Counted from the whole stretch's first letter, positions 3,405 to 62,363 are shown. The stretch: DNA of 63,473 nucleotides, filler included, from an uncultured Methanosarcinales archaeon (GCA_964535955.1; 7 parts of 6 records of this genome joined end to end with filler, not necessarily neighbours in it), one strand, 5' to 3'. A program made the numbers and translations. The notes: a model not told the origin generated them from the letters alone.

Positions 3405-3518
3405 GGTATGTGCATGGTGTCTGTAAGACCAGTGAGAACATATCAGATTGTACAACTATCAGGGCTTTCTATTAAATAATATTACACTTAGAAAGTTCGA
3501 ACGAACCATGCACATACT
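3405..3518 (+). repeat. Family A structured dispersed element, copy 1
   Basis: gtatgtgcatggt-gtctGTAagac-caGTGAgaac...ctttcta..tagaaag-ttcGAACga-accatgcacatac. Confidence 0.85.
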
Positions 3519-3526
3519 AAAAAACT

Positions 3527-4102
3527 TCACCTTTTCTTAACATCAACTTCTTTACCATCTAGATAAACAAGTGTAGAAGCATTGCCAGACAATTTACCAG
3601 CATCAATCACAAAATCAACTTTTTCTTTCATAGACTCATCCATATCATCTAAACAAGTCATATTTTTCTGTCCAAAGATATTAGCACTTGTTGTAACAAT
3701 CGGCTTACCAATTTCAGCACAAACTTGAGATATGAAATGATCAGGTATCCTAACACCAATTGTATCAGAACTAAAATTAATATTCTTTGCAATAATTGTT
3801 TTATTTTTTAACTTAAGTATAAGAGTATAAGCACCTGGCAATTTCTCCAGATACTCTCTAACATTATCATTTATAACACAATTATCAAGTATCCATTGCT
3901 TGCTAGGAGCAATCACTGAAACAGGTTTTTCACCTGGTAAACCTTTAATCAACCGAAGCTTAGCAACAGCATCAAAATTAGTAGCATCACACCCAATACC
4001 ATAGATTGTATCTGTTGGATATATGAATACAGCACCTTCTAATATCTTGCCAATAACACCTACTTTATAATCCTCGAATTCAGACGCTTTTATTATCTTC
4101 AT
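3527..4102 (-). CDS. Sua5/YrdC/TsaC threonylcarbamoyl-AMP synthase
   Basis: YPTDTIYGIGCDA, PGAYTLIL, IGVRIP, TTSAN, STLV motifs; start moved to ATG 4102 because the ORF extension runs through a repeat element and a TATA-like box lies ~25 nt upstream. Confidence 0.93.
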   Translation of the reverse strand: MKIIKASEFEDYKVGVIGKILEGAVFIYPTDTIYGIGCDATNFDAVAKLRLIKGLPGEKPVSVIAPSKQWILDNCVINDNVREYLEKLPGAYTLILKLKNKTIIAKNINFSSDTIGVRIPDHFISQVCAEIGKPIVTTSANIFGQKNMTCLDDMDESMKEKVDFVIDAGKLSGNASTLVYLDGKEVDVKKR

Positions 4103-4144
4103 ATGATATAGGAAGTGATTAGTGTTTTTAAACTTTGTTAAAAA

Positions 4145-4316
4145 AAGTATGTGTATGGTGCCTGTAAGGCCTGTCATAAATCGAAGATTTATGATCATGC
4201 TCAGAAATGTTCCACATTTCTGACAAGTGAGCAATTATTAGGATTGTAAAACCTAACTAGTGATCAATTAGTCATAATAAAAACATTGAGCATGCGAACG
4301 AATCATGCACATACTT
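4145..4316 (+). repeat. Family A element, copy 2 (interrupted by a family B insertion)
   Basis: agtatgtgtatggt-gcctGTAaggc-c[54-nt insert]aGTGAgca...attgagca-tgcGAACga-atcatgcacatact. Confidence 0.85.
4172..4225. mobile_element. Family B twin-hairpin miniature insertion, copy 1
   Basis: tgTCATAAATC-gaa-GATTTATGA-tcatgc-TCAGAAATG-ttcca-CATTTCTGAca; removing it restores CAGTGA of family A. Confidence 0.75.
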
Positions 4317-4527
4317 AAAGATGACCAATACAATATATATATTAAAAAACATATATTAAATATACCAAAGTAATATATCTCTAAACAACTACCTATATAT
4401 AGATAATTATATCGTAAATATCGCGATTACATATAATAAACACTTATTAAGCAGTTAGGTTAATAAATGTATAATAGTGAAGGGGGATGAAATATTTGAT
4501 TATAGAGATTAATAAAAAGATACTCAA

Positions 4528-5907
4528 GTGGTTAAAATCTTTAAAAAAAAACAAATCCAAATATTAGCAATATTTATTATTCTGCTTATCTTAGGTATAC
4601 CTCTATCATCTGCACAAACAATAGATAAAGGATCTATGAATTTTAAATATGATGAAAATGGCAATTTAATTCGAGGTGTAGATGAATACTATGTTTACAA
4701 TTCTTTGAATCAATTAACAGAAATAAAAGAAAAGAATGCAAATGGTAGAACATTAGCAAAATACTTTTATGATGAAACAGGTCAAAGAATTAAAAAAATA
4801 TCTTATGATGAACAAGAAAATTCTAAAACAACATATTACATTGATAAAAATTATGTAAAAGAAAAAGATTCTAATGGAGAAACAGACACAACTTATTATT
4901 ATGGACCATTAGGCTTAGCAGCTGAAAAAGATCAAGATGAAAATTACAAATATTATCATCCTAATCATCTTGGTAGCACACATATAACCACAGATGAAAA
5001 TGCAGAAGTAATTGAAGAAACAGCTTACAAACCATTTGGTCTTTCTTTAGAAGGAGGAAAATCAAGATACACATACACTGGCCAAGAAGATGACAAAGAA
5101 TCTTCTCTAATGTATTACAATGCTCGTTACTATTCTCCTTTACTAAGACATTTTACACAACCTGATACAATTCTTCCTAATGTTTATGATCCGCAGCAAT
5201 TGAATAAATATGGTTACGTAAGCAATAATCCTGTAAAGAATACTGATCCGAGTGGCAATTATGCTTGCGCAGGACCATGCGAAGTTGCAACTGGTACTTA
5301 CCTTCTCTATTTAGGTCTTGCATATCTTGGAGGATTATTATTATCAACAACAAATTCTAATGATTATAAGGATTATTATATGCCTACAAATTATCCATAC
5401 CAGTATCCAAATGTAGAGATAGAATTTCCTGTTGCACCAGGAACAGAGCTCCCCACATACTTTCCTCCTCCAAATCCCACATTGGAAGGAACAATAAATT
5501 TTCCAGGCGCTCCAGGATTTGATACTCCTTATTCATTTCCGCCAGCTTATGATACTGATTTACCTTTATTATTTCCAACACCCAATCTTAACGAAGAAAT
5601 GGAGCTTCAAGTTAAAAATCCGCTCGGAAGAAGATTTGAAGATGGAACAGAATCTTATTGGTCAGAACCATACCTTCCTTATTATATTGAACCAACAGGA
5701 GAAGAAGTAGCTTTGACAAGGGTAAATGAATTAGGAAGAATAACACAAGTACGTTGGTATGATGAATTTGGAAGAGCTACTAAAGATTTAGATCTAACAG
5801 ACCATGGAAGAGGGGATCATAAACCAGGACACACCCATAAAATCGATCCTGTTGATCCTAAGAATCCCAAAGCAGGAATAAAGAGGTTTCCACCAAATGT
5901 TGATTAA
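4528..5907 (+). CDS. Short secreted RHS-core protein with C-terminal putative nuclease toxin (Ntox24-like)
   Basis: Signal peptide, YD repeats, HPNHLGS, YTGQE, YYNARYY, QPD...NNPVKNTDPSG core, Pro-rich linker, tip RWYDEFGRATKDLDLTDHG..DH..GHTH. Confidence 0.85.
   Translation: MVKIFKKKQIQILAIFIILLILGIPLSSAQTIDKGSMNFKYDENGNLIRGVDEYYVYNSLNQLTEIKEKNANGRTLAKYFYDETGQRIKKISYDEQENSKTTYYIDKNYVKEKDSNGETDTTYYYGPLGLAAEKDQDENYKYYHPNHLGSTHITTDENAEVIEETAYKPFGLSLEGGKSRYTYTGQEDDKESSLMYYNARYYSPLLRHFTQPDTILPNVYDPQQLNKYGYVSNNPVKNTDPSGNYACAGPCEVATGTYLLYLGLAYLGGLLLSTTNSNDYKDYYMPTNYPYQYPNVEIEFPVAPGTELPTYFPPPNPTLEGTINFPGAPGFDTPYSFPPAYDTDLPLLFPTPNLNEEMELQVKNPLGRRFEDGTESYWSEPYLPYYIEPTGEEVALTRVNELGRITQVRWYDEFGRATKDLDLTDHGRGDHKPGHTHKIDPVDPKNPKAGIKRFPPNVD
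4639..5259 (+). repeat. Duplicated RHS core-coding segment (colinear with 6484-7104)
   Basis: Two highly similar 621-bp segments ending just after the DPSG codons. Confidence 0.85.
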
Positions 5908-6370
5908 ACTAAAAATAAGAAAAATAGAAGAAAATTGTTTAGTGAATTTCAAAAATTTATTAGACGTAATTAAAAATTTAAAAGATATAGAAAAAACAAA
6001 ATGGACATTATCTAATTTAGAAGGAGGGGGCAGTCAAAATACTGAAAAGATAAAAAAGATGATTGAAAACAGTGACAGCAAAATTTATTTGTGTTCATTC
6101 AATACATTTTATGATTTATTTAGTTACAATGATTTCATAGTTTGGGGAAATTTTATTGGTTTTAATTTAAACAATTGTCAAATTTCAGATGTTATGCCCA
6201 GTGAAGATGATTTAACAAATAATTTACAGATAAAAAATATCAAAATAGAAATAAGAGTAGTTGATAGCAGTTTTTATGAAATATTATCAAAAGATGAAGA
6301 ACTTATCAAAAAAATAGAAGAAGAATTTGAAAATAACCAATGGACAATTGAAAAAGAGATAATAAAATGA
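5897..6370 (+). CDS. Putative cognate immunity protein
   Basis: Small acidic ORF overlapping the stop of the RHS toxin gene; no signal peptide; function inferred from position. Confidence 0.6.
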   Translation: MLIKLKIRKIEENCLVNFKNLLDVIKNLKDIEKTKWTLSNLEGGGSQNTEKIKKMIENSDSKIYLCSFNTFYDLFSYNDFIVWGNFIGFNLNNCQISDVMPSEDDLTNNLQIKNIKIEIRVVDSSFYEILSKDEELIKKIEEEFENNQWTIEKEIIK

Positions 6371-7908
6371 ACAATAAACAAAAAACAAAATCAATTCAAC
6401 TCATTGCAATAGTTTTAGCACTAATCATATTATGTATGCCTTTTTCATTTGCAGATTCTGCTTCTAATAATCAAGGAACAATAAATTTTGAATATGATGA
6501 AAATGGAAATCTTGTTAAAGGCATTGATGAATATTATGTATATAATTCGCTTAATCAATTAATAGAAATAAAAGAAAATAATGCCAATGGCAGAACATTG
6601 GCAAAATACTTTTATGATGAAACAAGTCAAAGGATTAAAAAAATAACATATGATCAAGATGGAAATTCTAAAATAACTTATTATATTGACAAAAATTATG
6701 TAAAAGAAAAAGATTCTAATGGAGAAAAAGACACAACTTATTATTATGACTCTATGTCATTAGTTGCTGAAAAAGACCAAGATGAAAATTATAAATATTA
6801 TCATCCAAATCATCTAGGAAGCACACACATAATCACAGATGAAAATGGTGAACTAATTGAAGAAACAACTTACAAACCTTTTGGTCTTTCTTTAGATGGC
6901 GGAGAATCAAGATATACATACACTGGCCAAGAAGATGATAAAGAATCACAATTAATGTATTACAATGCTCGTTATTATTCTCCTTTGTTAAGACATTTTA
7001 CACAACCTGATATTATGATTCAAGACACTTTTAATCCTCAATCTTTGAATAGATATAGTTATGCCCAAAATAATCCTGTAAAAAATTCAGATCCTAGTGG
7101 AAATTTTGTTTGTGGAGGATTATGTATCGCAGGAGCAGTAATATTGATTGGTGTTGTTGGAGGAGCAACAATTGGTGGAGGGGGTGAAGCAATAAGACAA
7201 GTCTGGACAGGAGAAGGCAGTTTATTTGAAGGCACTCTTAATTGGAAATCGATTGGTAAATCTGCTGCAATAGGTGGAGTAGCAGGAGGAGTAGGAGCTG
7301 GAACATTTGGAGTAGGAACAGCAATAGGTGGTGCTGCAGGTGTATCAGCTTCTGGAATGATTGCTGTTGAAGGTGTTAGTTCTGCAGTCGCAGGTATTAC
7401 AGCAGGACAAGCAGCAAGAGCAACAGAAAATACATTGTATGATAGACCTGTAACAGAAGGACTTGGAGATCTTGAGGATATGGGCTATTCAGCACTCATA
7501 GGAGTATTTACTTGGGGGGCACTTAGGACAGTAAGTACTGTAGCTAGACAATTTTCTAAACCAACACCTAAAGTTAATCTTCAAAGCAGCAAACCACAAA
7601 ATATACCAATAAAAGATCTACAAGGAATCCATAAATTAGATTCACCTAAAACAATATTTTCTGAACAAAGAATAGCAGGAGCAGCAACAAAAGGGCCTAT
7701 AGATGTTTACAATGTAAAAGGAAAATTAGTTATTGGTGATGGTCATGGAAGAACTGCAAGAGCAGCTATATTAGGAGGAAAATCTTCAGTTACAGGAGTT
7801 ATTCAAAATGCAGACCCTGCAAATGTAGCAGCACAAGAAACCGCAAATGCATTGCAAGGTTATCCAAAATATGATATGGAAACATTGATCCAAAATATAA
7901 AAAAATGA
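6367..7908 (+). CDS. Short secreted RHS-core protein with Gly/Ala-rich linker and ParB/Srx-like C-terminal domain
   Basis: Signal peptide, same RHS core ending NNPVKNSDPSG, glycine-rich hydrophobic region, tip IPIKDL...PIDVY...LVIGDGHGR. Confidence 0.85.
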   Translation: MNNKQKTKSIQLIAIVLALIILCMPFSFADSASNNQGTINFEYDENGNLVKGIDEYYVYNSLNQLIEIKENNANGRTLAKYFYDETSQRIKKITYDQDGNSKITYYIDKNYVKEKDSNGEKDTTYYYDSMSLVAEKDQDENYKYYHPNHLGSTHIITDENGELIEETTYKPFGLSLDGGESRYTYTGQEDDKESQLMYYNARYYSPLLRHFTQPDIMIQDTFNPQSLNRYSYAQNNPVKNSDPSGNFVCGGLCIAGAVILIGVVGGATIGGGGEAIRQVWTGEGSLFEGTLNWKSIGKSAAIGGVAGGVGAGTFGVGTAIGGAAGVSASGMIAVEGVSSAVAGITAGQAARATENTLYDRPVTEGLGDLEDMGYSALIGVFTWGALRTVSTVARQFSKPTPKVNLQSSKPQNIPIKDLQGIHKLDSPKTIFSEQRIAGAATKGPIDVYNVKGKLVIGDGHGRTARAAILGGKSSVTGVIQNADPANVAAQETANALQGYPKYDMETLIQNIKK

Positions 7909-7941
7909 AAAAATCAAATAATCAAAAGGTGCAAAAAAAAA

Positions 7942-10900
7942 ATGAATGAAAAAACCAATAAAATAAAAATGCTTGCAATCTTTTTCATAGTTTTGATTGT
8001 ATTTAGCCAATTAAGCTTAGCTGCAAGTGAACAAAAAATAGAAAAATTGGAGGTCAAAAGAGATTCTAAGGAAAACCCTAAATCTGATGGTAGACAAGTA
8101 AAGACTAAAAGCTCAACTAATGCTTTGTCAGCGAGCATGCCTACAGAAACACCACCTGCAATGCTTAACACAGGGGCAAAAGATTCATTTACAAATGTTC
8201 TCAGCAATCTTGATAAGGGTTCGTTCCATAATGATCTATTTTCAGGATCAGCAACTTATTCATATTCATTCAAAGTCCCACCAGCACCAAACAATTTTAT
8301 ACCGAAAGCATCAATTAACTATAACCATCACCAAGCAACACTAAGAACAGAACTAGGTAATGCATGGAGCTTAAGTAAAAGTTATATCTATAGAAATACA
8401 GAAGGAACAAGAACCCAAACAGATGATGACACTTATTACCTGGTCTTAAACGGAGCAACAGCAAAACTTGTTTATGTTCCAAATGAAGATAGATATCACA
8501 CAGAACAAGAAAGTTATTCACACATTAAACAAGATGGAGAAACCTGGACAGTAAAAACAAAAGAGGGAACAATATTTAGGTTTGGTATTAACCAGGAAAC
8601 AAGTCTAGAATCAAGTTTAGAATCATACACAAGCCTTTGGTATCTAGAAGAGGTTGAAGATACACATTCAAACAAGATAAATTATCATTATCTAAAAAAC
8701 CCAGAACAAGACAAATCAATGTACCTAGACAAGATAATTTACAGCACAAATGAGATCAAGTTTAACTACAATTTTAATGCACACAATGGATTCTATGGTT
8801 ATATCTATGGAACAAAGATTGAACAGACAGCATTACTAGACAATATAGAAATAAAAACAAACAATGTCTTGCAAAGAAAATATAAACTAGATTATAAGAC
8901 AATTGATGATAAAAAATTCTTAAACAAGATAAGAAAGATTGGAAATGATGGTACTTCTGAATTACCTCCTGTTGAGTTCAGATATTATGAAAATAGTAAA
9001 GGATGGACAATAGATAATAATTGGGTGCTTCCTGATGATGCCAACACAGGATGGGATAAAGATCTTGGAACCAGATTATTAGACTTTAATAGTGATGGTC
9101 TCACAGATATTATAAAATCAAGAGGCAATATTCACAATATATGGTATAATACAGGCAATGGTTTTACAGAAAAAAAGACACTTGACAATTTTATTCCTGG
9201 AGGAATAGCTAGCGGAAGTGTTGACAAAGGAGTAAGATTTGGGAATATTAATGAAGATGCAAAAATTGATGTAATAAAATCTGTCAAAGGAACAAACACA
9301 GTTAAAGAACTCAGGATTAACAAACAAGATCATCTTATTGAAGAGGAATCAAATTTTCCAGCAGAAGCTGCTTTTGTAGATATTAAAATTAATGATTGTA
9401 CTCCTGACCCTTGCGATCCTGGAGGAGAAGATCATGGAATAAAATGTTATGATACTAGTTGTAGAAGGAAATGTTATTATGAGAATAAAGTTTGTAGTAA
9501 CAATTGGGTATCTGTTCATGAAAGTCAAGGTAATGGATATGATGAAATGTATGATAGTGAGAATAGAGATATAACTAATGGTTATTATGTAAGTGGTAAT
9601 GATAAATGTTATAAATTTGAAGTAGATACACCAAATTCAGCTTATATAGGAATATATGAAGATGAATGTGATATAGGAGCAGAAGATGATGGAGATGTTG
9701 TATTTATAGCAGGTCTTTTTACAAATAGAGGTAGTAATTCATGGCTTCAAAAAGTCCCTGCAATAGACCAATACAGAAGTTGGTATGGAAATTTAGAAAA
9801 ACCATACAATGACGCAGATTTCGAAGGCAGCTACCTTACATCATATGAATGGACAGAAGAAAGTTTTGAATTTGGTGCTGAACCAAGATTTGCAGCTGAT
9901 AACAGAGAGGTATATTGTGCTCCTAATTATAAAAATGATTATGATACTTGTATTGCTTCAAACCTATATCCATGTGCATTTGGATGTGATAACGAGAGAA
10001 TTTATGCATATGTGCAATCCGGATATTATTATGATCCTGGACACGACTTCATTTCAACAATAGCACTTGATGATAATTGTGATAGACACCAAGTATGGAA
10101 CCATGCTGGTAAATATATTAAAATGAAAGTTTATGCTTCTGATACATCTATAGAAACTGATTGGATAGATAAAGTGTGTATGAAAACCACTGAGGTTAGG
10201 GATTTGGGTGTAAGATTAGCAGATGTAAATGGTGATGGAAAGACAGATATAGTAAAAGCCCCATATTTTGATAATTTAAAGAAAATATGGCTCAAAACAG
10301 ACAATGGTTGGGAAGAAAATGAAGAATGGAAACCAGAAATCAATATTCATTTTACATATCATTATGGTGAAAGCGATGGAACAATACTCATAGACATTAA
10401 TGGAGACAATTTACCAGATTTTATTAAAGGAAATGGTGGAGTGAGAAAGTTCTGGATTAATACTGGAAAAAATTGGATTGAAGATTCCACATGGAAACTA
10501 CCATATGAAGCAACAATAATTAAGGACAAAGAAAACCAAGGTGTTCAGATAACTGACATTAATTCTGATGGTCTACCAGATTTAATAAGAGCATACGATG
10601 ATATTAAAAAAATATGGATCAATAATGGAAGGGGTTGGACAGAAGATACAGAATGGATTTTACCTGACAAAACCAATTTCAGACTTTATGCATGGAGTTT
10701 AACAGACATTGAAGGAGATGCTTCACCTGACATAATATATGCAGCAGTTATGGATTCTAGTTGGGGTAAAGCTTATATAAACAAATATTCAAAACAATAC
10801 TTACTTAAAGAAATCAAAAACAATGTTGGTGGAACTACAAAGATAGATTATAAAAAAATAACTTCATTAGATAATACAGGAAATGATGCTTTAAGTGATT

Positions 10901-11522
10901 TACCATTCAATGGATGGGTAGTTCATTCAATAGAAATTGATAATGGAATGACTAATGACCATGGTATAAAATCAAGTTATACAATAGATTATTCTGATGG
11001 ACTTTTTGATGACAGTAATGGAGATGAAAAAGAATTCAGAGGCTTTGGTTATGTAGAAGAAACAAAAATAGATGGAAGCAAAATTAAACATTGGTTCCAC
11101 CAAGATAAAAAGAAAAAAGGTTTAGAATACGAAACAAAAATAATGAATGAAAACAATAAATTATTCAAAAAATCAGAAAAACATTTTGTATCTCAAACTA
11201 CAGACCCATATTATGTAGTACAATTAGCTGCTTCAAAAGATTTCACTTATGATGGTGTCAATAATAATCCAACCATAAAACAAGTGGATTTGGACTATGA
11301 TGATTTTGGAAATGTTGTAAAAATTTCTTCGTTAGGAGATAAATCTATTGAGGGTGATGAGAAATATTCATATACTACATACTTGAATGATGTAGACAAA
11401 TGGATAATTGGCAAACCAACAAGAACCTATTTATTGGATTCTGATGATTTAACTAAAATCTCTGAGTCATTTTTCGAGTATGATCAATATGGTGGTTTAA
11501 TCAAATCAGAGTCTTGGTTAAA
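7942..11522 (+). CDS. Large secreted SpvB/TcdB-like (Rhs shell N-terminal) protein with FG-GAP repeats, 3'-truncated
   Basis: Signal peptide; DLFSGSATYSY...LGNAWSL SpvB-like start; DxNxDGxxD repeats; KEFRGFGYVEE TcdB mid-N-like motif; YD repeats before the gap. Confidence 0.85.
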
Positions 11523-11622
11523 NNNNNNNNNNNNNNNNNNNNNNNNNNNNNNNNNNNNNNNNNNNNTTAATTAATTAANNNNNNNNNNNNNNNNNNNNNN
11601 NNNNNNNNNNNNNNNNNNNNNN
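11523..11622. other. Artificial contig spacer
   Basis: N-run with TTAATTAATTAA. Confidence 0.98.
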
Positions 11623-17843: not shown

Positions 17844-17943
17844 NNNNNNNNNNNNNNNNNNNNNNNNNNNNNNNNNNNNNNNNNNNNTTAATTAATTAAN
17901 NNNNNNNNNNNNNNNNNNNNNNNNNNNNNNNNNNNNNNNNNNN
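17844..17943. other. Artificial contig spacer
   Basis: N-run with TTAATTAATTAA. Confidence 0.98.
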
Positions 17944-18241: not shown

Positions 18242-18529
18242 ATGGAATTTAAGAAAATAACAATATCTTTACCAAAAAGCTTGTATAAAGAAGGAATGAA
18301 CCTAGTTAATAGGGGTTTATTTTCTAATTTTAGTGATCTTGTTAGAAGTGGAATTAGAGAAGAATTCAAAGAATTAAGACCCATAATAAGAGATTTTGAT
18401 GAAAGATTTATTTATAGTGATAAGAAATTAATTGCTGGAGTAAAGCAAAGTATGAAAGAAGCTAAAGCTGGAAAAGGCAAGATTTTAAAGTCTGATAAAG
18501 AAATGGATAAGTATTTTGAGGAATTATAA
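18242..18529 (+). CDS. Ribbon-helix-helix (CopG-like) antitoxin
   Basis: KITISLP...G.FSNFSDLVR.GIR RHH pattern; directly upstream of a RelE-like toxin. Confidence 0.8.
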   Translation: MEFKKITISLPKSLYKEGMNLVNRGLFSNFSDLVRSGIREEFKELRPIIRDFDERFIYSDKKLIAGVKQSMKEAKAGKGKILKSDKEMDKYFEEL

Positions 18530-18531
18530 AA

Positions 18532-18786
18532 ATGGAGTATAGGATAAAGTTTACTCCATTTTTTGAGAAGCAGTTAAAGAAATTAAAAAAGAAAGATAGA
18601 GTTATGTTTAGAAGATTAACAAATAAACTAAAAGAAATAAGACATAATCCTGAACATTATAAACCATTAGGTAATGTGTTAAAAGGTAATAGACGAGCAC
18701 ATGTTGGTTCATTTATAATTGTTTTTGATATCAAAGGAGATCTGATTACAGTATATTATTTTAAACATCATGATTATGCATATTGA
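18532..18786 (+). CDS. RelE/ParE-family toxin
   Basis: Y.I.FT..F.KQLKKL, NPEHYKPL, RRAHVG, HHD.AY. Confidence 0.85.
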   Translation: MEYRIKFTPFFEKQLKKLKKKDRVMFRRLTNKLKEIRHNPEHYKPLGNVLKGNRRAHVGSFIIVFDIKGDLITVYYFKHHDYAY

Positions 18787-19192: not shown

Positions 19193-19307
19193 AGTGTTTG
19201 ATGGTGTCTGTAAGACCAGTGAGAACACAGATTATTCGTTAGACGATCAGGGCTTTCCATGTGATTCTACTGAAAATTGGAAAGTTCGAACGAACCATTC
19301 AAACACT
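19193..19307 (+). repeat. Family A element, copy 3
   Basis: agtgtttgatggt-gtctGTAagac-caGTGAgaac...agggctttcca..tggaaag-ttcGAACga-accattcaaacact; outer stem compensated relative to copy 1. Confidence 0.85.
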
Positions 19308-19425
19308 AATGGAAAGGATTAACAAGAAAAACTGATAAAAAAAAGAATCATAAAGAGGCGATTAGAATAAAGTGCAAAAAGATAGTAAAGTTAATAGATT
19401 TTTATTATATATGACATTTCTGGGA

Positions 19426-19539
19426 CACTGGACATTTGAAAAAAGGGTGTCCAGTGACTTTAAATGCTTGATTTTAGTAGGCAGAAGGTCTGTTCTCATT
19501 CTCACTGGTCACTGGACACGTGCGTGTGAAACTTATAAA
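19426..19539 (+). repeat. Family C 114-bp element with three CACTGGACA-type motifs and a terminal BRE/TATA-like AAACTTATAAA
   Basis: Gap-free similarity to 60262-60375 on the minus strand. Confidence 0.8.
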
Positions 19540-19561
19540 GGAGAATTACTATTGTATATAT

Positions 19562-22060: not shown

Positions 22061-22160
22061 NNNNNNNNNNNNNNNNNNNNNNNNNNNNNNNNNNNNNNNN
22101 NNNNTTAATTAATTAANNNNNNNNNNNNNNNNNNNNNNNNNNNNNNNNNNNNNNNNNNNN
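22061..22160. other. Artificial contig spacer
   Basis: N-run with TTAATTAATTAA. Confidence 0.98.
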
Positions 22161-42071: not shown

Positions 42072-42086
42072 TTTTCCACCCCGCAT

Positions 42087-43058: not shown

Positions 43059-43066
43059 ATTATCAC

Positions 43067-43540: not shown

Positions 43541-43700
43541 ATTTATAATCCTCCTTATAGAAAATATATAGTAAACCTCTTTAATTAATTTATACATTAA
43601 AAGAAGACTGAAATAAGCTTTATTCCACTAAAAAAGATTTTCGCAAGCTGAAAAAAGTTTCTAACAAAGTTTATATAGTAGTTTAACTATAAGGCTATAT

Positions 43701-44993
43701 ATGGTTACAAATACAGAAATAAACAAAATTCTAAAAAAAACAAAAAATTTCCTTATTAAAAGACAGAATAAAGAAGGTTCCTGGACTAGAAAAAGAGAAA
43801 TAGACCACAAAGGACCACAATATTACCTACAACCAGTTGTTTTAACTGCGCAGGCTATAAGGACTTTGTTTTTGGTTGGAAACAAGGAAAACTCAAAAGT
43901 CATTGACAAAGCAATTAATTTTTGTTTTAAGACACAAATAATTGAAAATGAACCAGTTGACATACTTGCATACCATCTTATGGCATTATCATATTCAAAT
44001 ACACCATTATTTATTCAAAAACAAAAACAATTAGTTAATTTAATATTCTCAAAACAATGTCAAAAAGGTTATTGGCCTTCTTTTCCACATACTTCTAATC
44101 TGGTTAATTTTAATACTGTTTTAGGTATAAAAGATTATGCTTGCAAGATTAATTTTCAAAAATTAAGACAATGGTTAAAATCAACAAAAGCAAAAGACAA
44201 TGTTGGCTGGAGTTTGGATGAAACTTATAAAGAATCTGAAATAAGTTTTACATCAAATGTTGTTTTAACATTGATCTACGCTGGGGAAGACCCTTCACAA
44301 CCTTTTCTTCAAGTTGCAAGAACATATTTAGAAAAACAGCAATTAGAAGATGGTGGATGGCCAAGCTCAAGATTAACAATTGCAAATGAATCAACGATTT
44401 ATGGAACAGCAATAACATTATTAGCATTGATGTTTTTATGTGATGATCCATTTAATGAAAAAATAGAAAAAGGAATTAATTTCTTAGTAAAACATCAACT
44501 TAAAGAAGGTTCTTGGTCTTTAAAAAAAAATGGAAAACAAGGACAATATTATACAACATATTATGCAGCAAAAGCATTAAAATATTATCAAATATTAAAA
44601 AAAGAACTTAAGAATGAATTCTACCAAAGATTAAGAGAGAATCTATCATATCCACAATTATTAACAATAATGATTGTAGAGGATTTTGAACAAAAAACAA
44701 AGAATAAATATCTTGATTCTATCTATACAAATCTCATAAATGCAAAACTTCTTGGAACAACAGCACCTGCTATTAAAAGAAGAAAGGAAATACTAAAGAT
44801 ATTAGCTGCAGAAGGTGAAAAAGATACAGCAGAATTGATTGATTCTTTGAAAATAATAAAAGGTTATGAAAAACTAAACAAAAGATATCATTTGGCACAG
44901 ATAAAGAATGATATGGTGCATCTAGAAGCTCTGAAACTTGTTAATGTTAATGAAAGAAGAAGATATTTTGTGGTTAGGAATGTTGTTTCATAA
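43701..44993 (+). CDS. Prenyltransferase/squalene-cyclase-repeat protein with C-terminal wHTH-like domain
   Basis: Repeated L...Q..[DE]G[GS]W motifs; C-terminal RRKEILKIL...T.EL...KNDM..LE.L.LV. Confidence 0.75.
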   Translation: MVTNTEINKILKKTKNFLIKRQNKEGSWTRKREIDHKGPQYYLQPVVLTAQAIRTLFLVGNKENSKVIDKAINFCFKTQIIENEPVDILAYHLMALSYSNTPLFIQKQKQLVNLIFSKQCQKGYWPSFPHTSNLVNFNTVLGIKDYACKINFQKLRQWLKSTKAKDNVGWSLDETYKESEISFTSNVVLTLIYAGEDPSQPFLQVARTYLEKQQLEDGGWPSSRLTIANESTIYGTAITLLALMFLCDDPFNEKIEKGINFLVKHQLKEGSWSLKKNGKQGQYYTTYYAAKALKYYQILKKELKNEFYQRLRENLSYPQLLTIMIVEDFEQKTKNKYLDSIYTNLINAKLLGTTAPAIKRRKEILKILAAEGEKDTAELIDSLKIIKGYEKLNKRYHLAQIKNDMVHLEALKLVNVNERRRYFVVRNVVS

Positions 44994-44994
44994 G

Positions 44995-45112
44995 TTCTGG
45001 TGAAACCCCAGCCAATTGGCCAAGTGAGGCAAAGTCATATTTGTAAAACTGCATTGATACTCTATAAGAGAATACAAAGAATAGAGTAGCCGAACGATGG
45101 GTTTCAGCAGAG
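44995..45112 (+). repeat. Family A element, copy 4 (sequence-divergent, same architecture)
   Basis: tgaaacccca-gccaattggc-caaGTGAggc...ttgtaaaac...tactctat..atagagta-gccGAACga-tgggtttca. Confidence 0.7.
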
Positions 45113-45160
45113 TTGTTTCATAAAAACATTAATAAACACTTGTTCTTTTTCTATTAATAA

Positions 45161-45315
45161 GCACCCGTAGCCTAGTCTGGAAACATAGGTTAGACAAATA
45201 GGGCAACATTAGTATGTGTAATAATACTTACAATTGCAAGCCTCCTAAGCTGTGGGTCGAGAGTTCGAAATCTTGCCGAAACAATCTCGGTGAAAGGAAA
45301 GTCTCTCCGGGTGCG
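45161..45315 (+). tRNA. tRNA-Arg(CCT) with three introns (45181-45197, 45209-45239, 45270-45301)
   Basis: Spliced product GCACCCG..ACAGC-CTCCTAA-GCTGT..GAGAG-TTCGAAT-CTCTC-CGGGTGC-G; BHB-like central helices GTCT/AGAC, GCAA/TTGC, TTCG/GGAA. Confidence 0.88.
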
Positions 45316-45345
45316 CTTTATATTCAAAACAAGAGGTGAACAAAC

Positions 45346-54752: not shown

Positions 54753-54852
54753 NNNNNNNNNNNNNNNNNNNNNNNNNNNNNNNNNNNNNNNNNNNNTTAA
54801 TTAATTAANNNNNNNNNNNNNNNNNNNNNNNNNNNNNNNNNNNNNNNNNNNN
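54753..54852. other. Artificial contig spacer
   Basis: N-run with TTAATTAATTAA. Confidence 0.98.
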
Positions 54853-55992: not shown

Positions 55993-57639
55993 TTATTTAC
56001 CACGGCCAAAAAGTATTTTGCATCCAACATTTACTCCACAATTATTATTTGAATCTATTGTAACTGCAGCAAAAAGTAAACTTCCCTGTTTACCTTTTTG
56101 TTCAATATAAGCTCCTAATCTAAGATTTCCATTTTCATCACTTATTAAAGCCCCTCTATAAGTTTTACCACCTTGTTCATGTGCATATGAAAAACCACCT
56201 GCACCTCCATGTTTGCCAAGAGAAACTGTTACACCTAAATTATCATTTAATTTTTCAGAAAATGTAGTATACCTGCTAATACCTCCTGGAAGATCTGAGC
56301 TAGTTATTGTTGCTGCACTTCTTGCCTGAGATCTTAACTGGTTAAATCTTGCTTGTCCACGTGCACGATCAAATAACATTCTTTGATTTGAATTAGGATC
56401 CATGTTTTCTAAATGCATGCTTGCATCTCCATATAAATTGCCATTAAAGTTTAGAGAAGGCATGTCTAGTCCTATATCTTTACCACCTGCATGAACATCA
56501 ACACGAGAATCTTTAAGACCAAGTCCAATTCTTGCTTCACCAGTGTTACGGTTGAAGGATCCACTTACTTTAACACCCTCAACAGTTGCTTCTGCTTTGC
56601 TAGCATAAAATCTTTCAATTTGAGACTCAGTAACTCCCCCTCTTGAATCAAAATGAATTGGTTCTGTGCCTGCTGTTAAAATAAAAGGTGATTTTTCTTC
56701 TCGCTGATCAACAGGAACATCAGGTGAATGAGAAACAATCTCAACATCACCAGACACATCATAACTTCCATCTGGTTTAACAAGAATTTGATAATTATTA
56801 CCATCAAAACGATTGTTCCATGTGCCTGCATATCCATTTAAATTACAAACAATATTACCATCTTGATCTTTTTCAACTCTTCCTGTAAATTCACTGCCAC
56901 TTATTGAACCTAATGAAAATTTTTCACCAAATGCAGTAAACCCTTTTTTATTTATCTCATATTCTGTTCCTTCAAGATCTGGGTAATAAATTCCATTTAC
57001 ACTAAAGCCTCCGTCTGCAAGTGCTCGTACATTATCTTCTTCAGTAAATTTGCTAGGATCAATTGTTACACCTTTATTTTTAAGATCTCCAAAATGATCA
57101 TATTCCAGTCCTTCAATATTTCCAACAAGGTCTACATTAGGAAATTTTTCACCAAAATCTATTTTAAATAATCCATACTTAAGAACAATCACTTTTACAT
57201 CTCCGCCTCTTAGCTTTGTCAAGTCAACCTCCCCATTGTTGTTCTTAATCTTTCCATCAGCAGTGTATTGCAAATCTTTTACACTTATCTCAAGATTGAC
57301 AATTATATCATTCTCAACCTCAAGGTCAAAACCTTTTGTTTCAAGAGGAACAATTGTTACTGTCTTTTTTAGACCACTGAGGTCAAGTGCAATGTCTTTG
57401 TTTACAAGCTGACCTTTGTTTGTGTATTCTAATGGTTTTATTTCACCATATTCAATAGAGATAATTTGACCATATGTCTCTCTAACAAAGTCTTGAAATT
57501 CTCCTTTATGTTCAGTAACATCTGCATAACCCTCTGAAAAATCTATCTCTTGTTCTGAATCGTCTTGTGCAATAGAAGTAAAACTAATTATCATAATTAG
57601 AATCAATACAAAGATTGTTAGTATTGTTTTTGTTTTCAT
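55993..57639 (-). CDS. Secreted hypothetical protein with internal ~45-aa repeats
   Basis: Signal peptide; L.Y...G.L.N....DL..L repeats; beta-rich C-terminus. Confidence 0.75.
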   Translation of the reverse strand: MKTKTILTIFVLILIMIISFTSIAQDDSEQEIDFSEGYADVTEHKGEFQDFVRETYGQIISIEYGEIKPLEYTNKGQLVNKDIALDLSGLKKTVTIVPLETKGFDLEVENDIIVNLEISVKDLQYTADGKIKNNNGEVDLTKLRGGDVKVIVLKYGLFKIDFGEKFPNVDLVGNIEGLEYDHFGDLKNKGVTIDPSKFTEEDNVRALADGGFSVNGIYYPDLEGTEYEINKKGFTAFGEKFSLGSISGSEFTGRVEKDQDGNIVCNLNGYAGTWNNRFDGNNYQILVKPDGSYDVSGDVEIVSHSPDVPVDQREEKSPFILTAGTEPIHFDSRGGVTESQIERFYASKAEATVEGVKVSGSFNRNTGEARIGLGLKDSRVDVHAGGKDIGLDMPSLNFNGNLYGDASMHLENMDPNSNQRMLFDRARGQARFNQLRSQARSAATITSSDLPGGISRYTTFSEKLNDNLGVTVSLGKHGGAGGFSYAHEQGGKTYRGALISDENGNLRLGAYIEQKGKQGSLLFAAVTIDSNNNCGVNVGCKILFGRGK

Positions 57640-57687
57640 TTTGTTTGTTTATTTTGATATTTTTTTTGTTTTTCTTTTTTTATTTTT

Positions 57688-57800
57688 AGTGTGTGCATGG
57701 TTCGTTCGTACTTTCCATTTGCAGTTACATTGCATGGAAAGCCCTTGTTGTTTTACAACTTGCATGGGTACTCTCTGGCCTTACAGGCACCATGCACACT
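57688..57800 (-). repeat. Family A element, copy 5
   Basis: Minus strand: agtgtgcatggt-gcctGTAaggc-caGAGAgtac...gttgtaaaacaac..agggctttcca..tggaaag-tacGAACga-accatgcacac. Confidence 0.85.
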
Positions 57801-57806
57801 TTTTTT

Positions 57807-58547
57807 TTACTCAAACTTCATTGCAAATATAAACATAAATGGTTCGTCTAAAACTTCTGATTCAAGGTCTTTGATAAAATATACAAGGTCGTTATCATTA
57901 TTGTCAGGAACCATTGAAATATTATAACCAGGTCTTAGATAAAAATAAATATCTAAAAGATCAGGATCTTGGGATTGTTTTTCAACAATCTCTTTTACAA
58001 GTGACTGTGTTTGTTTTAGGTTGATGTCATGTGATGATGAAAATTCATTAATTGTTGTTGTTTCGTCATTGTTCTTTATTATGATTGGCCAGTCAATGTC
58101 AACCAAAACTTTATTTGAACCTATCTGTGTTGTTGTTTTTATCTCACCCACCTTTATGTCATGGAATTCAAATATCTCTAGTGAGCATTCTGTTGGCAAT
58201 GTATTGTCCATGTAAAATGATATACTGTGTTCTAGATCATCTATAGTCGGTGAAAGGTTTTTGTCAATATAATACAAATAACTTGTATCAAAAAAATCAC
58301 CTGAATAAACATGTTCTGGCTCCATATAACCACCATGAATACCTAGTTTAAATATTGCTATGGGTAATTGTTTGTCAACACAGTCCTGGACAAATGATTG
58401 TATTGGTTTTGTGTTTGTTGTTGTTTGTACTTGTGTAAATGTTTTTGATTCTGCTGATCCTGAGGAAAGGAAAAAAAATAAGATAGAAATGATTACTAAT
58501 AATAATCCAATTATGATAAATATACTTATCTGAGCTCTTTTTTTCAT
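57807..58547 (-). CDS. Class III signal-peptide (pilin-like) protein, paralog of 54853-55917
   Basis: MKKRAQ-ISIFIIIG, FVQDC..HGGY, F.FA C-terminus. Confidence 0.8.
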   Translation of the reverse strand: MKKRAQISIFIIIGLLLVIISILFFFLSSGSAESKTFTQVQTTTNTKPIQSFVQDCVDKQLPIAIFKLGIHGGYMEPEHVYSGDFFDTSYLYYIDKNLSPTIDDLEHSISFYMDNTLPTECSLEIFEFHDIKVGEIKTTTQIGSNKVLVDIDWPIIIKNNDETTTINEFSSSHDINLKQTQSLVKEIVEKQSQDPDLLDIYFYLRPGYNISMVPDNNDNDLVYFIKDLESEVLDEPFMFIFAMKFE

Positions 58548-58601
58548 GTTATGTTTAGATTTAGGGGGTATATATATATAAATGTTATTGTATTTAGAAG
58601 T

Positions 58602-59339
58602 TTATTTCTTTGCTGCTGGTGGAGCACCACCTGGCGCTGCTACAACTTCAACAGGTAATTTCTCATCAATGATCTTTTGTGGTATCTTTGCTTCAACCAT
58701 CTTTGTCTTGATCTGGCCACGAGGTTTGCCTTCCATTGATTTCATGATTTCTTCTGCTTTCTTTTCAAATATTTCTCTTTGTTTTTCTATCTGTTCTGCT
58801 AATCTTTTCTTTTCTTCTTCTAATTCTTTCATTTCTTCTGCACTTATCTCTGTTTTTTCTTCTTTGATCTCTTGATCAAATTTGCCTTCTGAGACTAATT
58901 TTAATGCGTCTTGCGCAGGAACTCCTTCAACCAACATACCCATTGATTGACATGTGCCAATTATTTCTCTAACTTTGTTTTTAAGATCTTTGCCTAATAA
59001 TGCATCTTCTTTCATCTTTGCAATCTTGATAATCTGTTCTATCTTTAGATCTGCAACTTTTTCTGTTAATGGATTAGAAGCACCTTTTTTTATACCAGCT
59101 TCTTTTTTAATTAGTGCTGATGCAGGAGGTGTGCCTACTTCTATTTCAAATGATTTTGTTTCAGTATTAACTATAACTTTAATTGGTACTTGCATTCCTT
59201 GAAAAGAAGCTGTTTTTTTATTGATTTCTTGTACAACTTGGCCTATGTTTAATCCTAATGGACCTAGTGCAGGACCTAGTGGAGGTGCTGCTGTAGCTTT
59301 GCCACCTTGAATCAATGCTTCTACTGTTTCAGTTGCCAT
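58602..59339 (-). CDS. rpl11: 50S ribosomal protein uL11 with C-terminal extension
   Basis: GGKATAAPPLGPALGP, GTPPASALI, IGTC.SMG. Confidence 0.96.
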   Translation of the reverse strand: MATETVEALIQGGKATAAPPLGPALGPLGLNIGQVVQEINKKTASFQGMQVPIKVIVNTETKSFEIEVGTPPASALIKKEAGIKKGASNPLTEKVADLKIEQIIKIAKMKEDALLGKDLKNKVREIIGTCQSMGMLVEGVPAQDALKLVSEGKFDQEIKEEKTEISAEEMKELEEEKKRLAEQIEKQREIFEKKAEEIMKSMEGKPRGQIKTKMVEAKIPQKIIDEKLPVEVVAAPGGAPPAAKK

Positions 59340-59396
59340 GATAGTATTTGAAAACTTACTCCTATTTAAAAAGATTTCGTATTTTTTAAGCTAAAT

Positions 59397-60227
59397 CTAA
59401 TTAAATTTCTTATTTCCTAGTTGTTTAATATGTTTATTTTCAACCAAAATCTTCATCTGAGATATCGCAATTTCATTTAGCTTGATCAATCTATCATGTT
59501 GGTTTATTCCTTTTTTAATAAATAAAGAGTTAAAGTTTTCAAGATTAGATAAACAAACTAATTGAGAAACATTTGCATAATCTCTTATATTTCCCTTTTT
59601 TTTAGGATTATCAATCCTCCATTCTTTAGCAGTAATTCCAAACAAAGCAACATTTAAAACATCTGCTTCAGAAGCATAGATTTGTTTTTCTTGTTTTTTA
59701 GTAATCTTCTTAGGTATTAAATTATTCTTGATTGCATCAGTATGTATATTATAATTTATTTTTGCAAGTTCTCTTTTTACATTCCAGCCAAGATGTTTTT
59801 TTTTATTTTCTTCTAATTTTAATCTTTGAAATTCCTTGATTAAATATAACTTGAATTCAACAGAAATCCAAGATGCAAACTCAAAAGCAATGTCTTTATG
59901 AGCATAAGTGCCGCCATATCTTCCTGGTTTTGAAATAATGCCTTGAGCATTTGTTTTTTTATTCCATTGCTTTACAGTAAGAACGAAACTGTTTAGTCCT
60001 GCTTGTTTTCTAAACCCATCGAATTCGATGGGATTAAAATTAGGATTATTTATACTTTCCCAAATTCCTAGAAATTCTATTGTATTTCTGTTTCTAAGCC
60101 AATTTTGGATTATATAATCACTTCTAATAGGGTCTTTATATCTTGCAATATCTGTTAAAGAGATATAATCTTCTTGTTTTTTAGAAAATAAACAAATTTC
60201 AGTTCCTTTGACATTAATTTTAGTCAT
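59397..60227 (-). CDS. KilA-N domain protein
   Basis: DYISLTDIA, NWLRNRNTIEFLG.WE, GRYGGTYAHKDIAFEFASW, NY.IHTDAIK, ASEADVLN. Confidence 0.93.
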   Translation of the reverse strand: MTKINVKGTEICLFSKKQEDYISLTDIARYKDPIRSDYIIQNWLRNRNTIEFLGIWESINNPNFNPIEFDGFRKQAGLNSFVLTVKQWNKKTNAQGIISKPGRYGGTYAHKDIAFEFASWISVEFKLYLIKEFQRLKLEENKKKHLGWNVKRELAKINYNIHTDAIKNNLIPKKITKKQEKQIYASEADVLNVALFGITAKEWRIDNPKKKGNIRDYANVSQLVCLSNLENFNSLFIKKGINQHDRLIKLNEIAISQMKILVENKHIKQLGNKKFN

Positions 60228-60261
60228 ACATATCACCTCATATATATAATAATCATCCTCA

Positions 60262-60375
60262 TTTATAAGTTTCACACGCACATGTCCAGTGACCACTAAG
60301 AATGAGTATAGGTCTTCTAACTACAGAATTAGACTAATAGAAGTCAGTGGACATGTATTTTCAGAATGTCCACTG
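60262..60375 (-). repeat. Family C 114-bp element, copy 2
   Basis: Colinear with 19426-19539, with a compensatory change in the first inverted repeat. Confidence 0.8.
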
Positions 60376-60455
60376 ATAATTAATCATACACTTACTAATA
60401 ATCATACATTACACCACAATAATCTTTATATATATAATTTCTCACCATTATATAT

Positions 60456-60785
60456 ATGGCAATTTGGGAAGAGATTACTTGCAAGAAATGTAGACAAAAA
60501 GTTCATATTAGTAATGTAAAATGTAATCTAGATGGTGATCTTATCTGTGTTTCTTGTTTAGATAAAATAAAAACAAAGAAATTAGAAAAAAAACAACCTT
60601 CTACCAAATCAAAAGAACGTATCAATTATCAATGTCTTAGGTGCAGGTATAGGTTTTCTTTTGGCAAAGATTCAAGAGCTGCATTAAGATGTCCATATTG
60701 TGATTCTACTAATATTCAAAGAATCATGAAACAAGGTGCTCAGGCATGGGTGAAGAAGGCTGGTAATGATTTGTATGATTTTTGA
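60456..60785 (+). CDS. Zinc-ribbon protein
   Basis: Four CxxC pairs. Confidence 0.75.
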   Translation: MAIWEEITCKKCRQKVHISNVKCNLDGDLICVSCLDKIKTKKLEKKQPSTKSKERINYQCLRCRYRFSFGKDSRAALRCPYCDSTNIQRIMKQGAQAWVKKAGNDLYDF

Positions 60786-60798
60786 TTTGTAAAAATTC

Positions 60799-60910
60799 TG
60801 TGTCTGGCTCGTTCACATGCTCAATGTTTCTGTAATGGCAAATTGAGCACCAATGCATTGTCACCAATTTAACCTTTGCTCACTGGTCTTACAGACGCCA
60901 GACACATACT
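60799..60910 (-). repeat. Family A element, copy 6
   Basis: Minus strand: tgtgtctggc-gtctGTAagac-caGTGAgca...tgctcaat..attgagca-tgtGAACga-gccagacaca. Confidence 0.82.
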
Positions 60911-60920
60911 AAGAACTTAT

Positions 60921-62177
60921 TCAAACAGTCTGCTCAGTCACTTCTGCATCAGCATCAACAACTACTAATTTCTTTTTTCTTCTTTGTCTGAAGAATTCGA
61001 AAATAATGACTGCAATTGCAATGAAGATCAAACCATAGTTTACATAATTCATTGGCTCAATGCACATATTGCTTTTGTTTAATGACATTGAAACATAAAC
61101 TTCTATCAATGCTGAGATATAGACAATTGCAATTGCTATTACGATAAGAATAAGACTTTCTTTGATTGTTTTTTTAAATGATTCTGACATCAGCTTGTCA
61201 TTGATAAAAGCTGCTGGCAATAATGCGCCTGAGATTGCTGCAACAAAATATGCTGATACTTCTGGGATCATATGGATAAACATTATACCCATATTACATG
61301 CTAAGAATGAATAAAGGTAGAGAATGCCTGACCTTGGAACTTTTATCAAGATAACACTGACTAAAGCTGATGCAAAGATTGAAGCATTGAATGTTATAAG
61401 GAATAAGGCGCCTGCACCAAAGAATAATGATAGTATCCAGGCAATGATCATTACCTTGAGATTGTTTTTAAAAATCGATTTAACTTCTGACATCTTATTG
61501 ATCTTGAGCTTTGACAGATCTATCATTTCTGATTTTTTTTTACTTGTTTCTTGTTTTGGCTGCACTTCTTCTTCTTCAATAAGATCTTCTAATGAAAAAA
61601 CAGCACCCTCTGGAATTTCTAAAATTGGTATTCCTAGTTTTACTTCTATAGTATGTTCAATTGAGGATCTGCTTAGAATAGTGATCATGAAAAATGCAAT
61701 AAATACTCCAATAAAAAAATATACATAAAAATTGATAAATGGCCTGTGCCTTTTCCAAAAACCTATGTTCTTTGTTTTTATGAAATCTGCTTCTTTTTTT
61801 GTAAGGTTTGCAATTATTGGAATGCCTAGTATTACTGTAAACAAGATAGTTGACAAGCCTAAGAATGGTTTGAATAATTCATATGATGCATAGAATGCTA
61901 CAAATGTGAATAAAACACCTGCTGTTAAATAATAAGTTGCATTGCTCTTTACATTGCTTATGATAAACATCTCAAACACTTGTTTTATGTAAAGGGCTGC
62001 GATCAAGATGAATAATATTTTTGAATATTTTGGAAGAAATTTTGGTAAATAAAATAATCTATCTAACCATGCAGAGTTTGCTAATATAAATATGACAAAA
62101 GATGCAATAAAAGCTATTGTAAGATAGAAAAAAGTCTTATTTTCATTTATCCTCTTTTTTATTGAGTCTAGACTCAT
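60921..62177 (-). CDS. SpoIIM/DUF95-like multi-pass membrane protein
   Basis: IF.NNLKV, NASI, H..PE..AY..AAI.G, SALIEVY. Confidence 0.8.
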   Translation of the reverse strand: MSLDSIKKRINENKTFFYLTIAFIASFVIFILANSAWLDRLFYLPKFLPKYSKILFILIAALYIKQVFEMFIISNVKSNATYYLTAGVLFTFVAFYASYELFKPFLGLSTILFTVILGIPIIANLTKKEADFIKTKNIGFWKRHRPFINFYVYFFIGVFIAFFMITILSRSSIEHTIEVKLGIPILEIPEGAVFSLEDLIEEEEVQPKQETSKKKSEMIDLSKLKINKMSEVKSIFKNNLKVMIIAWILSLFFGAGALFLITFNASIFASALVSVILIKVPRSGILYLYSFLACNMGIMFIHMIPEVSAYFVAAISGALLPAAFINDKLMSESFKKTIKESLILIVIAIAIVYISALIEVYVSMSLNKSNMCIEPMNYVNYGLIFIAIAVIIFEFFRQRRKKKLVVVDADAEVTEQTV

Positions 62178-62201
62178 TTTATATTCTGTTAATTGAAACC
62201 C

Positions 62202-62363
62202 AGTATGTGCATGGTTCGCTCACACTTTCCATTCGCAGCAATCTCGCATGGAAAACCCTGATCTCATGAATCAGAGATTCATGATCGTGATCAAGAATCT
62301 TCGATTCTTGACATTACGAATAATCTGTGTGTTCGCTGGTCTTACAGACACCATGCCCATACT
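62202..62363 (-). repeat. Family A element, copy 7 (carries a family B insertion)
   Basis: Minus strand: agtatgggcatggt-gtctGTAagac-caGCGAacac...agggttttcca..tggaaag-tgtGAGCga-accatgcacatact. Confidence 0.85.
62262..62313. mobile_element. Family B twin-hairpin insertion, copy 4
   Basis: tcTCATGAATC-aga-GATTCATGA-tcgtga-TCAAGAATC-ttc-GATTCTTGAca. Confidence 0.72.

Follow-up and report, generated by a model that had tools for sequence, protein, structure and literature searches.

Several groups of short prokaryotic repeats are known for the structures that they form. [quoted passage not shown] REP/BIME sequences and PATEs work as folded single strands and, when transcribed, stabilize the upstream mRNA, and the substrate in the case of integron attC sites is likewise a folded single strand. 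Here, we describe family A, a set of seven dispersed elements (c1 to c7) in a stretch of DNA from an uncultured Methanosarcinales archaeon (GCA_964535955.1), and compare it with these systems. The stretch, referred to below as the window, comprises 63,473 bases and consists of seven concatenated contigs. Two additional copies, designated L014 and L002 after the loci in which they were found, were identified in other metagenome-assembled genomes (MAGs), and statements on nine copies refer to these two together with the seven of the window.

Family A has much in common with prokaryotic MITEs and other transcribed repeats, which are likewise small, multicopy, AT-rich and intergenic. A review describes MITEs as AT-rich elements that target AT-rich intergenic DNA, whose transcripts adopt stable folds and whose direct repeats disappear over time (PMC10969869). 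Further likenesses are a long stem derived from terminal inverted repeats, a stable transcript fold, fading direct repeats, nested insertions and an association with breaks in assemblies. Two features that define a MITE can be found in family A: the elements are short, multicopy, non-coding and intergenic, and terminal inverted repeats, which form the outer stem P1, are present in 9/9 copies. In contrast with typical MITE terminal repeats, the sequence of P1 varies between copies. P1 covaries, and what is fixed in family A are the ten unpaired letters of a three-way junction. A candidate target duplication was detected for 1/9 copies, and no parent insertion sequence is known.

Like REP/BIME sequences with their RAYTs and IS200/IS605-derived PATEs, family A is extragenic and often found just behind stop codons. 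REPs, however, are single hairpins of 20-40 nt with a conserved tetranucleotide head, whereas family A is a branched fold of 115 nt, one copy of which (c4) has a 12-nt flanking duplication; moreover, no RAYT, TnpA or TnpB was detected in the 81 open reading frames (ORFs) that were scanned. Integron attC sites share with family A the retention of structure over sequence and a location directly behind ORFs, but family A lacks the R boxes (9/9 copies) and is flanked by housekeeping genes in both orientations, rather than by a cassette array. Hammerhead and other small ribozymes are also built from three helices around a small invariant core, with tandem G.A pairs that extend a helix, and occur in multiple copies beside unrelated genes. 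In family A, however, the junction strands are C-A and G-A, with G-Y and R-C paired to each other, and no Rfam ribozyme was matched at E<=10.

An earlier note on this DNA had recognized no RNA family in these elements, and the searches bear this out. Rfam 15 gave 0 matches at gathering thresholds over the whole window, and scans by E-value of 57600-62500, 29068-46000, c5 alone and c1 alone yielded chance-level matches only, far below gathering and in no case a structured match to family A. A survey of the literature in outline found no description of family A. The consensus words of known elements are absent as well. The hammerhead core word CUGANGA and the attC end boxes R'' (RYYYAAC) and R' (GTTRRRY) were found in 0/9 copies on either strand, and so was box C (RUGAUGA). 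A k-turn carries a 3-nt bulge 5' of its tandem G.A pairs; in the model of family A, these pairs lie between Watson-Crick pairs with no bulge. A dispersed structured repeat is in itself of a known kind, and what is new is the combination of covarying termini with an invariant three-way-junction core outside Rfam.

Copies and fold of family A

A covariance model (R1) was trained on five copies and used to search the whole window with filters off at E<=10. Of the 25 matches, seven correspond to the copies listed in the earlier note, each of which reads as described there. The five training copies scored 100-120 bits, compared to 50.1 bits for c2 (E 1.3e-9; positions 4204-4317) and 24.4 bits for c7 (E 0.0013), the low scores of the latter two being due to a ~54-nt two-hairpin insertion in each. 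Four further matches are fragments or antisense matches of c1, c2, c5 and c7, and the remaining 14 have E-values of 1.3-8.5. Neither the R1 search nor motif scans found an eighth copy or a half-element in the window.

All nine copies display a common layout, as had been proposed: P1, P2, C-A, a helix P3 opened by GNGA and closed by GARC, G-A and P1'. P1 is a 10-13-bp pairing of the two ends in 9/9 copies and closes the three-way junction. It is followed directly, with no linker, by P2, which consists of 4 bp and a GUA loop in 8/9 copies and of GCC-AAUU-GGC (GCC-AATT-GGC as DNA) in c4, a copy that also has its own P1 sequence. P2 and P3 are joined by C-A, or by C-A-A in c4. The 5' side of P3 is composed of G-Y, G-A and 3 bp, and the 3' side of 3 bp, G-A and R-C, after which come the junction G-A and P1'. 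The interior of P3 begins with a stretch that varies between copies and contains a short hairpin (P3a), the loop of which is G-U-R-A in 6/9 copies; this stretch precedes a well-defined hairpin of 7-8 bp (P3b). The earlier note had placed two hairpins inside P3; P3b is well supported, while P3a is weakly supported as a common helix, and its supposed TTGTAAAAC loop is exact in 3/7 window copies. Inspection by eye for loop-loop or pseudoknot pairings among P2, P3a and P3b revealed none that is consistent across copies.

The stems retain pairing while changing in sequence. Across five helices and nine copies, amounting to 267 cells, 253 are Watson-Crick, 4 are G.U, 2 are A.C and 8 are other mismatches, so that pairing is retained in 257/267. 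Among the six insertion-free copies, 93.0% of 172 cells are paired, compared to 75.8% in shuffles, and 16/29 pairs are altered on both sides. In four of five measures, 0/500 shuffles matched the observed values, and 5/500 did so for further pair types, although, given that the copies are related, these shuffle controls exaggerate significance. When the partner was slid by 1-3 columns in the same six copies, pairing fell to 21-42%. The compensatory changes exceed the controls, as the claim of covarying stems would have it, for nine related sequences from which the structure itself was derived. RNAalifold independently recovered P1, P2, P3 and P3b, plus a weak P3a of 3 bp, and each copy folds more stably than its shuffles (z -2.8 to -5.0). 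The stem variants that the earlier note had quoted are also present in the sequences, namely the P1 stems of c1, c3 and c6, GTCT/AGAC versus GCCT/AGGC for P2, GAAC/GTTC, GTAC/GTAC, ACAC/GTGT and GGC/GCC for P3, the three versions of the inner hairpin, and the switch from GT..AC to GC..GC, which is seen in c7.

The same note had suggested that structure rather than sequence is conserved. The first half of this statement stands, but sequence is kept as well, as the junction letters C-A, G-N-G-A, G-A-R-C and G-A are identical in 9/9 copies. The junction and tandem G.A columns are 100% conserved, compared to a majority fraction of 0.62-0.69 in the loops.

Based on P3b, the copies fall into two subtypes, a CUUUCCA-type and a UGCUCAAU-type. 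Subtype I includes c1 (3405..3520, + strand, 120.1 bits with R1), c3 (19193..19309, + strand, 110.5 bits; P1 with one bulged T), c5 (57686..57802, - strand, 118.9 bits) and c7 (62202..62363, - strand), and subtype II is represented by c6 (60799..60910, - strand, 106.3 bits). In c2 (4145..4317, + strand), a c1-like P1 is joined to a subtype-II interior like that of c6 and the L002 copy, making it a mosaic; two G.U pairs occur in its P1 and one A.G in its P3b. The most divergent copy is c4 (44994..45111, + strand, 100 bits). All seven are intergenic and 112-172 nt long, and all lie within 63 kb.

Relatives were sought in genome contigs with one 20-mer pattern derived from 6 of the 7 window copies, which returned 14 loci. 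R1 accepts two of these, L014 (1899-2015; 105.3 bits) and L002 (8792-8960; 51.4 bits), on short contigs of two other MAGs labelled Methanosarcinales with a GC content of 25% and 30%, respectively. The L014 copy, from an independent MAG, reached its score despite having been absent from the training of R1. The other 12 loci resemble family A little outside the 20-mer pattern. Among them, L009 (25.7 bits, GC 0.54), in which 66 positions of the model are deleted, and L001 (16.3 bits, with little match beyond the 20-mer) were set aside as chance matches, and in L006, a Nanoarchaeia contig (14.3 bits), the pattern lies within a coding-looking region. Because the 20-mer misses c4-like variants, the range of the family is underestimated. 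A blastn search with c5 against phage and plasmid collections gave no match, and metagenome gene calls, searched at the protein level with a spurious ORF antisense to c5, produced no candidate. No synteny between L002 or L014 and the window was found that would allow filled and empty sites to be compared.

Possible function of the fold and rival explanations

The earlier note had reported that c4 to c7 begin within about 10 nt of a same-strand stop codon. This is indeed the case: c4 sits directly after the stop of ORF 43701-44993 (1-3 nt), c5 lies 6 nt after the stop of ORF 57807-58547, c6 10 nt after that of the SpoIIM-like ORF 60921-62177, and c7 6 nt after that of ORF 62370-62849. The L002 copy is also near a stop codon. 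The simplest explanation for the closeness of these five copies to stop codons is that, where spacers are very short, insertions survive in the gap from a stop to the promoter that follows. On the other side, c5, whose two neighbouring genes are both on the strand of the copy, ends ~49 nt before the ATG of ORF 55993-57639, the next same-strand gene after c7 has its ATG (62177) 25 nt beyond the end of the copy, and the L014 copy ends 7 nt before the next start codon. The archaeal TATA box is located ~26 nt upstream of the transcript start. Downstream of c7 and of the L014 copy, the gap is too short to accommodate a promoter, and transcripts of the genes that follow therefore probably run through the element in sense. 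In all spacers between co-directional genes (c4, c5, c7 and L002), the copies are in sense (4/4), and the tandem G.A pairs and G-U-R-A/GNRA-like loops are present on the given strand only.

Our leading reading, to which we would assign somewhat less than an even chance, is that family A is a MITE-like element in which selection acts on an RNA fold, and that this fold works in cis at the ends of mRNAs. The elements would be non-autonomous and interspersed in a low-GC archaeal genome, with the single-strand fold under selection instead of the terminal sequence. The copies occupy short AT-rich spacers, where most of them follow closely on a stop codon and precede the next promoter or start, and, to judge from the spacing to start codons, would be transcribed in sense along with neighbouring genes. 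The fold would thus arise in the mRNA as a cis-acting, end-defining module, either at the 3' end or between cistrons. It is possible that the long P1 and compact junction block 3'-5' decay or serve as a processing mark between cistrons, and that the invariant junction provides the recognition surface for a putative protein. A role in stabilization or processing is suggested by analogy with the REP/BIME, ERIC and Correia elements of bacteria. A bolder reading, in which a previously undescribed catalytic or protein-recognized RNA module, such as a new class of small self-cleaving ribozyme, is carried on a mobile element and sets mRNA 3' and 5' ends between the tightly packed genes of a reduced archaeal genome, seems to us rather improbable.

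Several points weigh against a cis-acting RNA fold on a MITE-like element. The case for transcription is made by spacing, and the binding protein is putative. The sense orientation of 4/4 copies corresponds to p = 0.06 at best, and orientation is uninformative for the five others, as c2, c3 and L014 lie in divergent regions, c6 in a convergent one and c1 at a contig edge. The stems bear no RNA signature, because G.U (4/267) is scarcely commoner than A.C (2) and both strands pair equally. By folding energy, the sense strand is the more stable in 6/9 copies with RNA parameters and in 9/9 with DNA parameters, but the differences are small and discriminate neither between the strands nor between RNA and DNA. 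No transposase and no autonomous parent element were detected among the 81 ORFs scanned (61 in the window and 20 of L002/L014), and a flanking repeat occurs in 1/9 copies, with seven others at chance level and c1 at a contig edge. Moreover, the dataset consists of nine related copies from three MAGs, the structure was read from those same sequences, and the alignment (A4) was fitted to the model. Finally, the covariation could originate from master copies selected for transposition, and not from a function for the host at each locus.

One indication of mobility is provided by c4, which is flanked by a 12-nt direct repeat. The left repeat, GTTGTTTCATAA (44982..44993, + strand), takes in the final codons of the upstream ORF together with its stop, and the right repeat (45112..45123, + strand) is exact, making it a candidate target-site duplication; 0/2000 shuffles share a word that long. 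The 5' flanks of the copies have no common word. A second indication comes from c1, which begins 3 nt after the start of its contig, in an assembly whose contigs end where the k=55 graph does. Exact matches between c1 and the other window copies reach 27 nt at most, and a k=55 branch point at c1 would therefore imply a closer copy elsewhere. The nested insertions, the mosaic make-up of c2 and the unrelated genes beside the copies point in the same direction. From the one flanking duplication and the one contig break, we infer that family A is probably mobile, and it would account for part of the fragmentation of the assembly. The lack of any near-identical pair among the copies argues against mobility.

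The earlier note had offered a structured RNA or a folded single-stranded DNA (ssDNA) element as alternatives; a real multicopy family with a covarying fold exists, and the evidence speaks in part for each alternative. In the ssDNA explanation, the fold works in DNA, moved by an enzyme that reads the folded strand, in the manner of REP/BIME sequences and RAYTs, PATEs or attC sites, and transcription is incidental. This we regard as unlikely, although it would fit the drift of the stems in sequence while structure stays, the rarity of G.U (as expected were G.T pairs poorly tolerated), the greater stability of the given strand with DNA parameters, and insertion behind ORFs with signs of mobility. 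DNA hairpins with GNA loops and sheared G.A pairs are known to be stable, but RNA accommodates both motifs equally well, which counts against using them as an argument for ssDNA. Furthermore, the Pfam scan of the 81 ORFs detected no HUH/Y1 transposase, RAYT, TnpB or integron integrase, and the only recombinases present, two tyrosine recombinases (20635-21462 and 24534-25847), do not adjoin a copy. The attC R boxes are missing from the ends on both strands, and we know of no ssDNA recombinase that requires ten invariant unpaired letters at a three-way junction. Target duplications are not produced by IS200/IS605-type elements, which insert beside a fixed short word, whereas c4 has a 12-nt duplication and no common 5' flank word was found. 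A second explanation, which like the ssDNA one is not exclusive of a cis-acting RNA fold, is that family A represents a small ribozyme of a new kind, which would cleave itself within polycistronic transcripts and so release the neighbouring mRNAs. Three helices, a core of about ten invariant letters and a helix extended by tandem G.A pairs are on the scale of the hammerhead, multiple copies beside unrelated genes are also known for hammerhead and twister ribozymes, and a cut at P1 in the copies 7 and 25 nt before a start codon would release a nearly leaderless mRNA. We nevertheless consider a ribozyme distinctly improbable, given that single copies match no Rfam 15 ribozyme even at E<=10, the hammerhead core word is missing, no site of cleavage can be pointed to, and the conserved C-A junction is interrupted in c2 by the insertion.

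It is also conceivable that the copies are independent genes for a small RNA, either trans-acting or part of a ribonucleoprotein, each with its own promoter. The termini defined by P1, the invariant core and TATA-like words suitably placed upstream of L014 (where TTTAAATA ends ~19 nt upstream of P1), c5 and c7 would be consistent with such genes. TATA-like words, however, are ubiquitous in DNA of 30% GC, and most copies are not followed by a T-run terminator (a T5 is found after c6 only). A dispersed repeat accounts better for the variability of P1 and the inner hairpins, for the nested insertions and for the 12-nt duplication, and we accordingly think small RNA genes decidedly unlikely. At the other extreme, the element could be a degenerate palindromic repeat whose fold is unselected, the covariation being the result of templated repair of palindromes or shared ancestry. 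The relatedness of the copies, which causes the shuffle controls to overstate significance, and stems that are equally complementary on both strands are in line with this scenario. In contrast, the junction letters are invariant in 9/9 copies while the loops have diverged, and repair would preserve neither these letters nor the asymmetric tandem G.A pairs. The slid controls, which keep relatedness, are nonetheless only 21-42% paired, and the copy from an independent MAG fits R1 at 105 bits, making an unselected fold highly improbable in our judgement.

If the fold works in RNA, family A would add a structured RNA family to those of the low-GC archaea, which are poorly known; its three-way-junction core could be protein-binding or catalytic, and it would illustrate how mRNA ends are set in such genomes where spacers are very short. 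If the fold works in DNA instead, it would point to an unrecognized structure-reading recombinase in archaea. Either way, family A would be a mobile repeat selected for its structure and a small core, not for its terminal sequence.

Copy surroundings, the nested module and other regions of the window

The genes beside the copies are of unrelated kinds, including Sua5, SpoIIM-like, prenyltransferase-like and aRF1/Pelota-like genes and an HTH regulator. A reading of the elements as introns or spacers of split genes was rejected on the grounds that the flanking ORFs belong to unrelated families, as was a peptide-coding reading, since frames across the copies are short and differ between copies. 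The 3' end of c1 is 8 nt from the stop of a convergent Sua5/YrdC gene (3527-4111, - strand). A divergent intergenic region holds c2, and the neighbouring genes of c6 are convergent. The divergent region containing c3 has a gene for a YhcG-type nuclease 212 nt downstream of the copy. This PDDEXK nuclease is followed by a XerC/D-like tyrosine recombinase, the two together occupying 19520-21462. Also beside c3 (18242-18786), two small co-directional ORFs, the first without a Pfam match, are laid out like a putative toxin-antitoxin pair. The surroundings of c3, on a 4-kb contig of lower GC content (27.4%), may constitute a small mobile or defence islet.

Nested hairpin insertions are carried by 3/9 copies (c2, c7 and L002). 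In c2, a two-hairpin module of ~54 nt (4172-4225) separates the C from the A of the P2-P3 junction, and in c7 the module (62262-62315) is located in the loop of P3a. Another copy at 33218-33271, 80% identical to the c2 insert, lies outside family A, indicating that the insertions in c2 and c7 represent a separate repeat family. A fourth copy at 29156-29207 provides the end of an ORF that enters from the start of the contig, namely its final four codons and the TAG stop. Of the 4 module copies, 2 lie inside family A. The module is composed of two hairpins, each of the form TCAnnAAnn-loop-nnTTnnTGA with covarying nn, a palindromic centre and a TGTCA...TGACA frame. In appearance it is a MITE of very small size, with a tolerance or preference for non-coding DNA that is structured. 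The L002 copy contains a different two-hairpin insertion just after P3a (8866-8910, - strand). Because this insertion is unrelated to the window module, the P3a-P3b region appears to tolerate extra hairpins in independent lineages.

The module copy at 33218-33271 is itself part of a strongly folded, non-coding region between two minus-strand genes (33195-33375, + strand), with a minimum free energy of -67.7 kcal/mol and a z of -6.2. Besides the module, this region contains a GCC-GUA-GGC hairpin and CCAGA-GA words that recall family A. Neither R1 nor Rfam gave a match there, and the region may encode another unclassified RNA. The sequence at 45161-45315 (+ strand) resembles a tRNA gene interrupted at three places: it starts with acceptor and D-arm words, includes a T-arm word and has an acceptor end that matches on the 3' side. 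ARAGORN reported no tRNA in the whole window, and Rfam none at E<=1 for this region. A tRNA gene with multiple introns would suit a DPANN-like or Thermoproteales-like archaeon.

The window as a whole has a GC content of 30.7% and includes archaeal genes for topoisomerase VI B, an archaeal-type AdoMet synthetase, TruD, FtsZ and an SFM1-like protein. Its six joins are N44-TTAATTAATTAA-N44 spacers at 3302-3401, 11523-11622, 17844-17943, 22061-22160, 28968-29067 and 54753-54852. Owing to this concatenation, ORFs that span spacers (e.g., 1581-3353) are artefacts, strand relations between contigs are meaningless, and the 59-kb span and pattern of strands attributed to family A in the earlier note have no meaning. 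The contigs that start at 11623 and 54853 begin with the same 55-mer, one the reverse complement of the other, which indicates that the contigs were cut at the ends of a k=55 assembly graph, in which these two are neighbours.

At 4528-11520 (+ strand), three large ORFs match RHS-repeat, FG-GAP and TcdB-middle/N-terminal domains, and their products look like surface or polymorphic-toxin-like proteins; two segments of ~300 nt within this region are duplicated, 1845 nt apart, with an identity of 85-86%. At 28447-28967, a 132-nt tandem repeat of 3 units with an identity of 73-78% reaches the contig end and lies inside a CARDB/Big_9 surface-protein gene (26811-28847, - strand).

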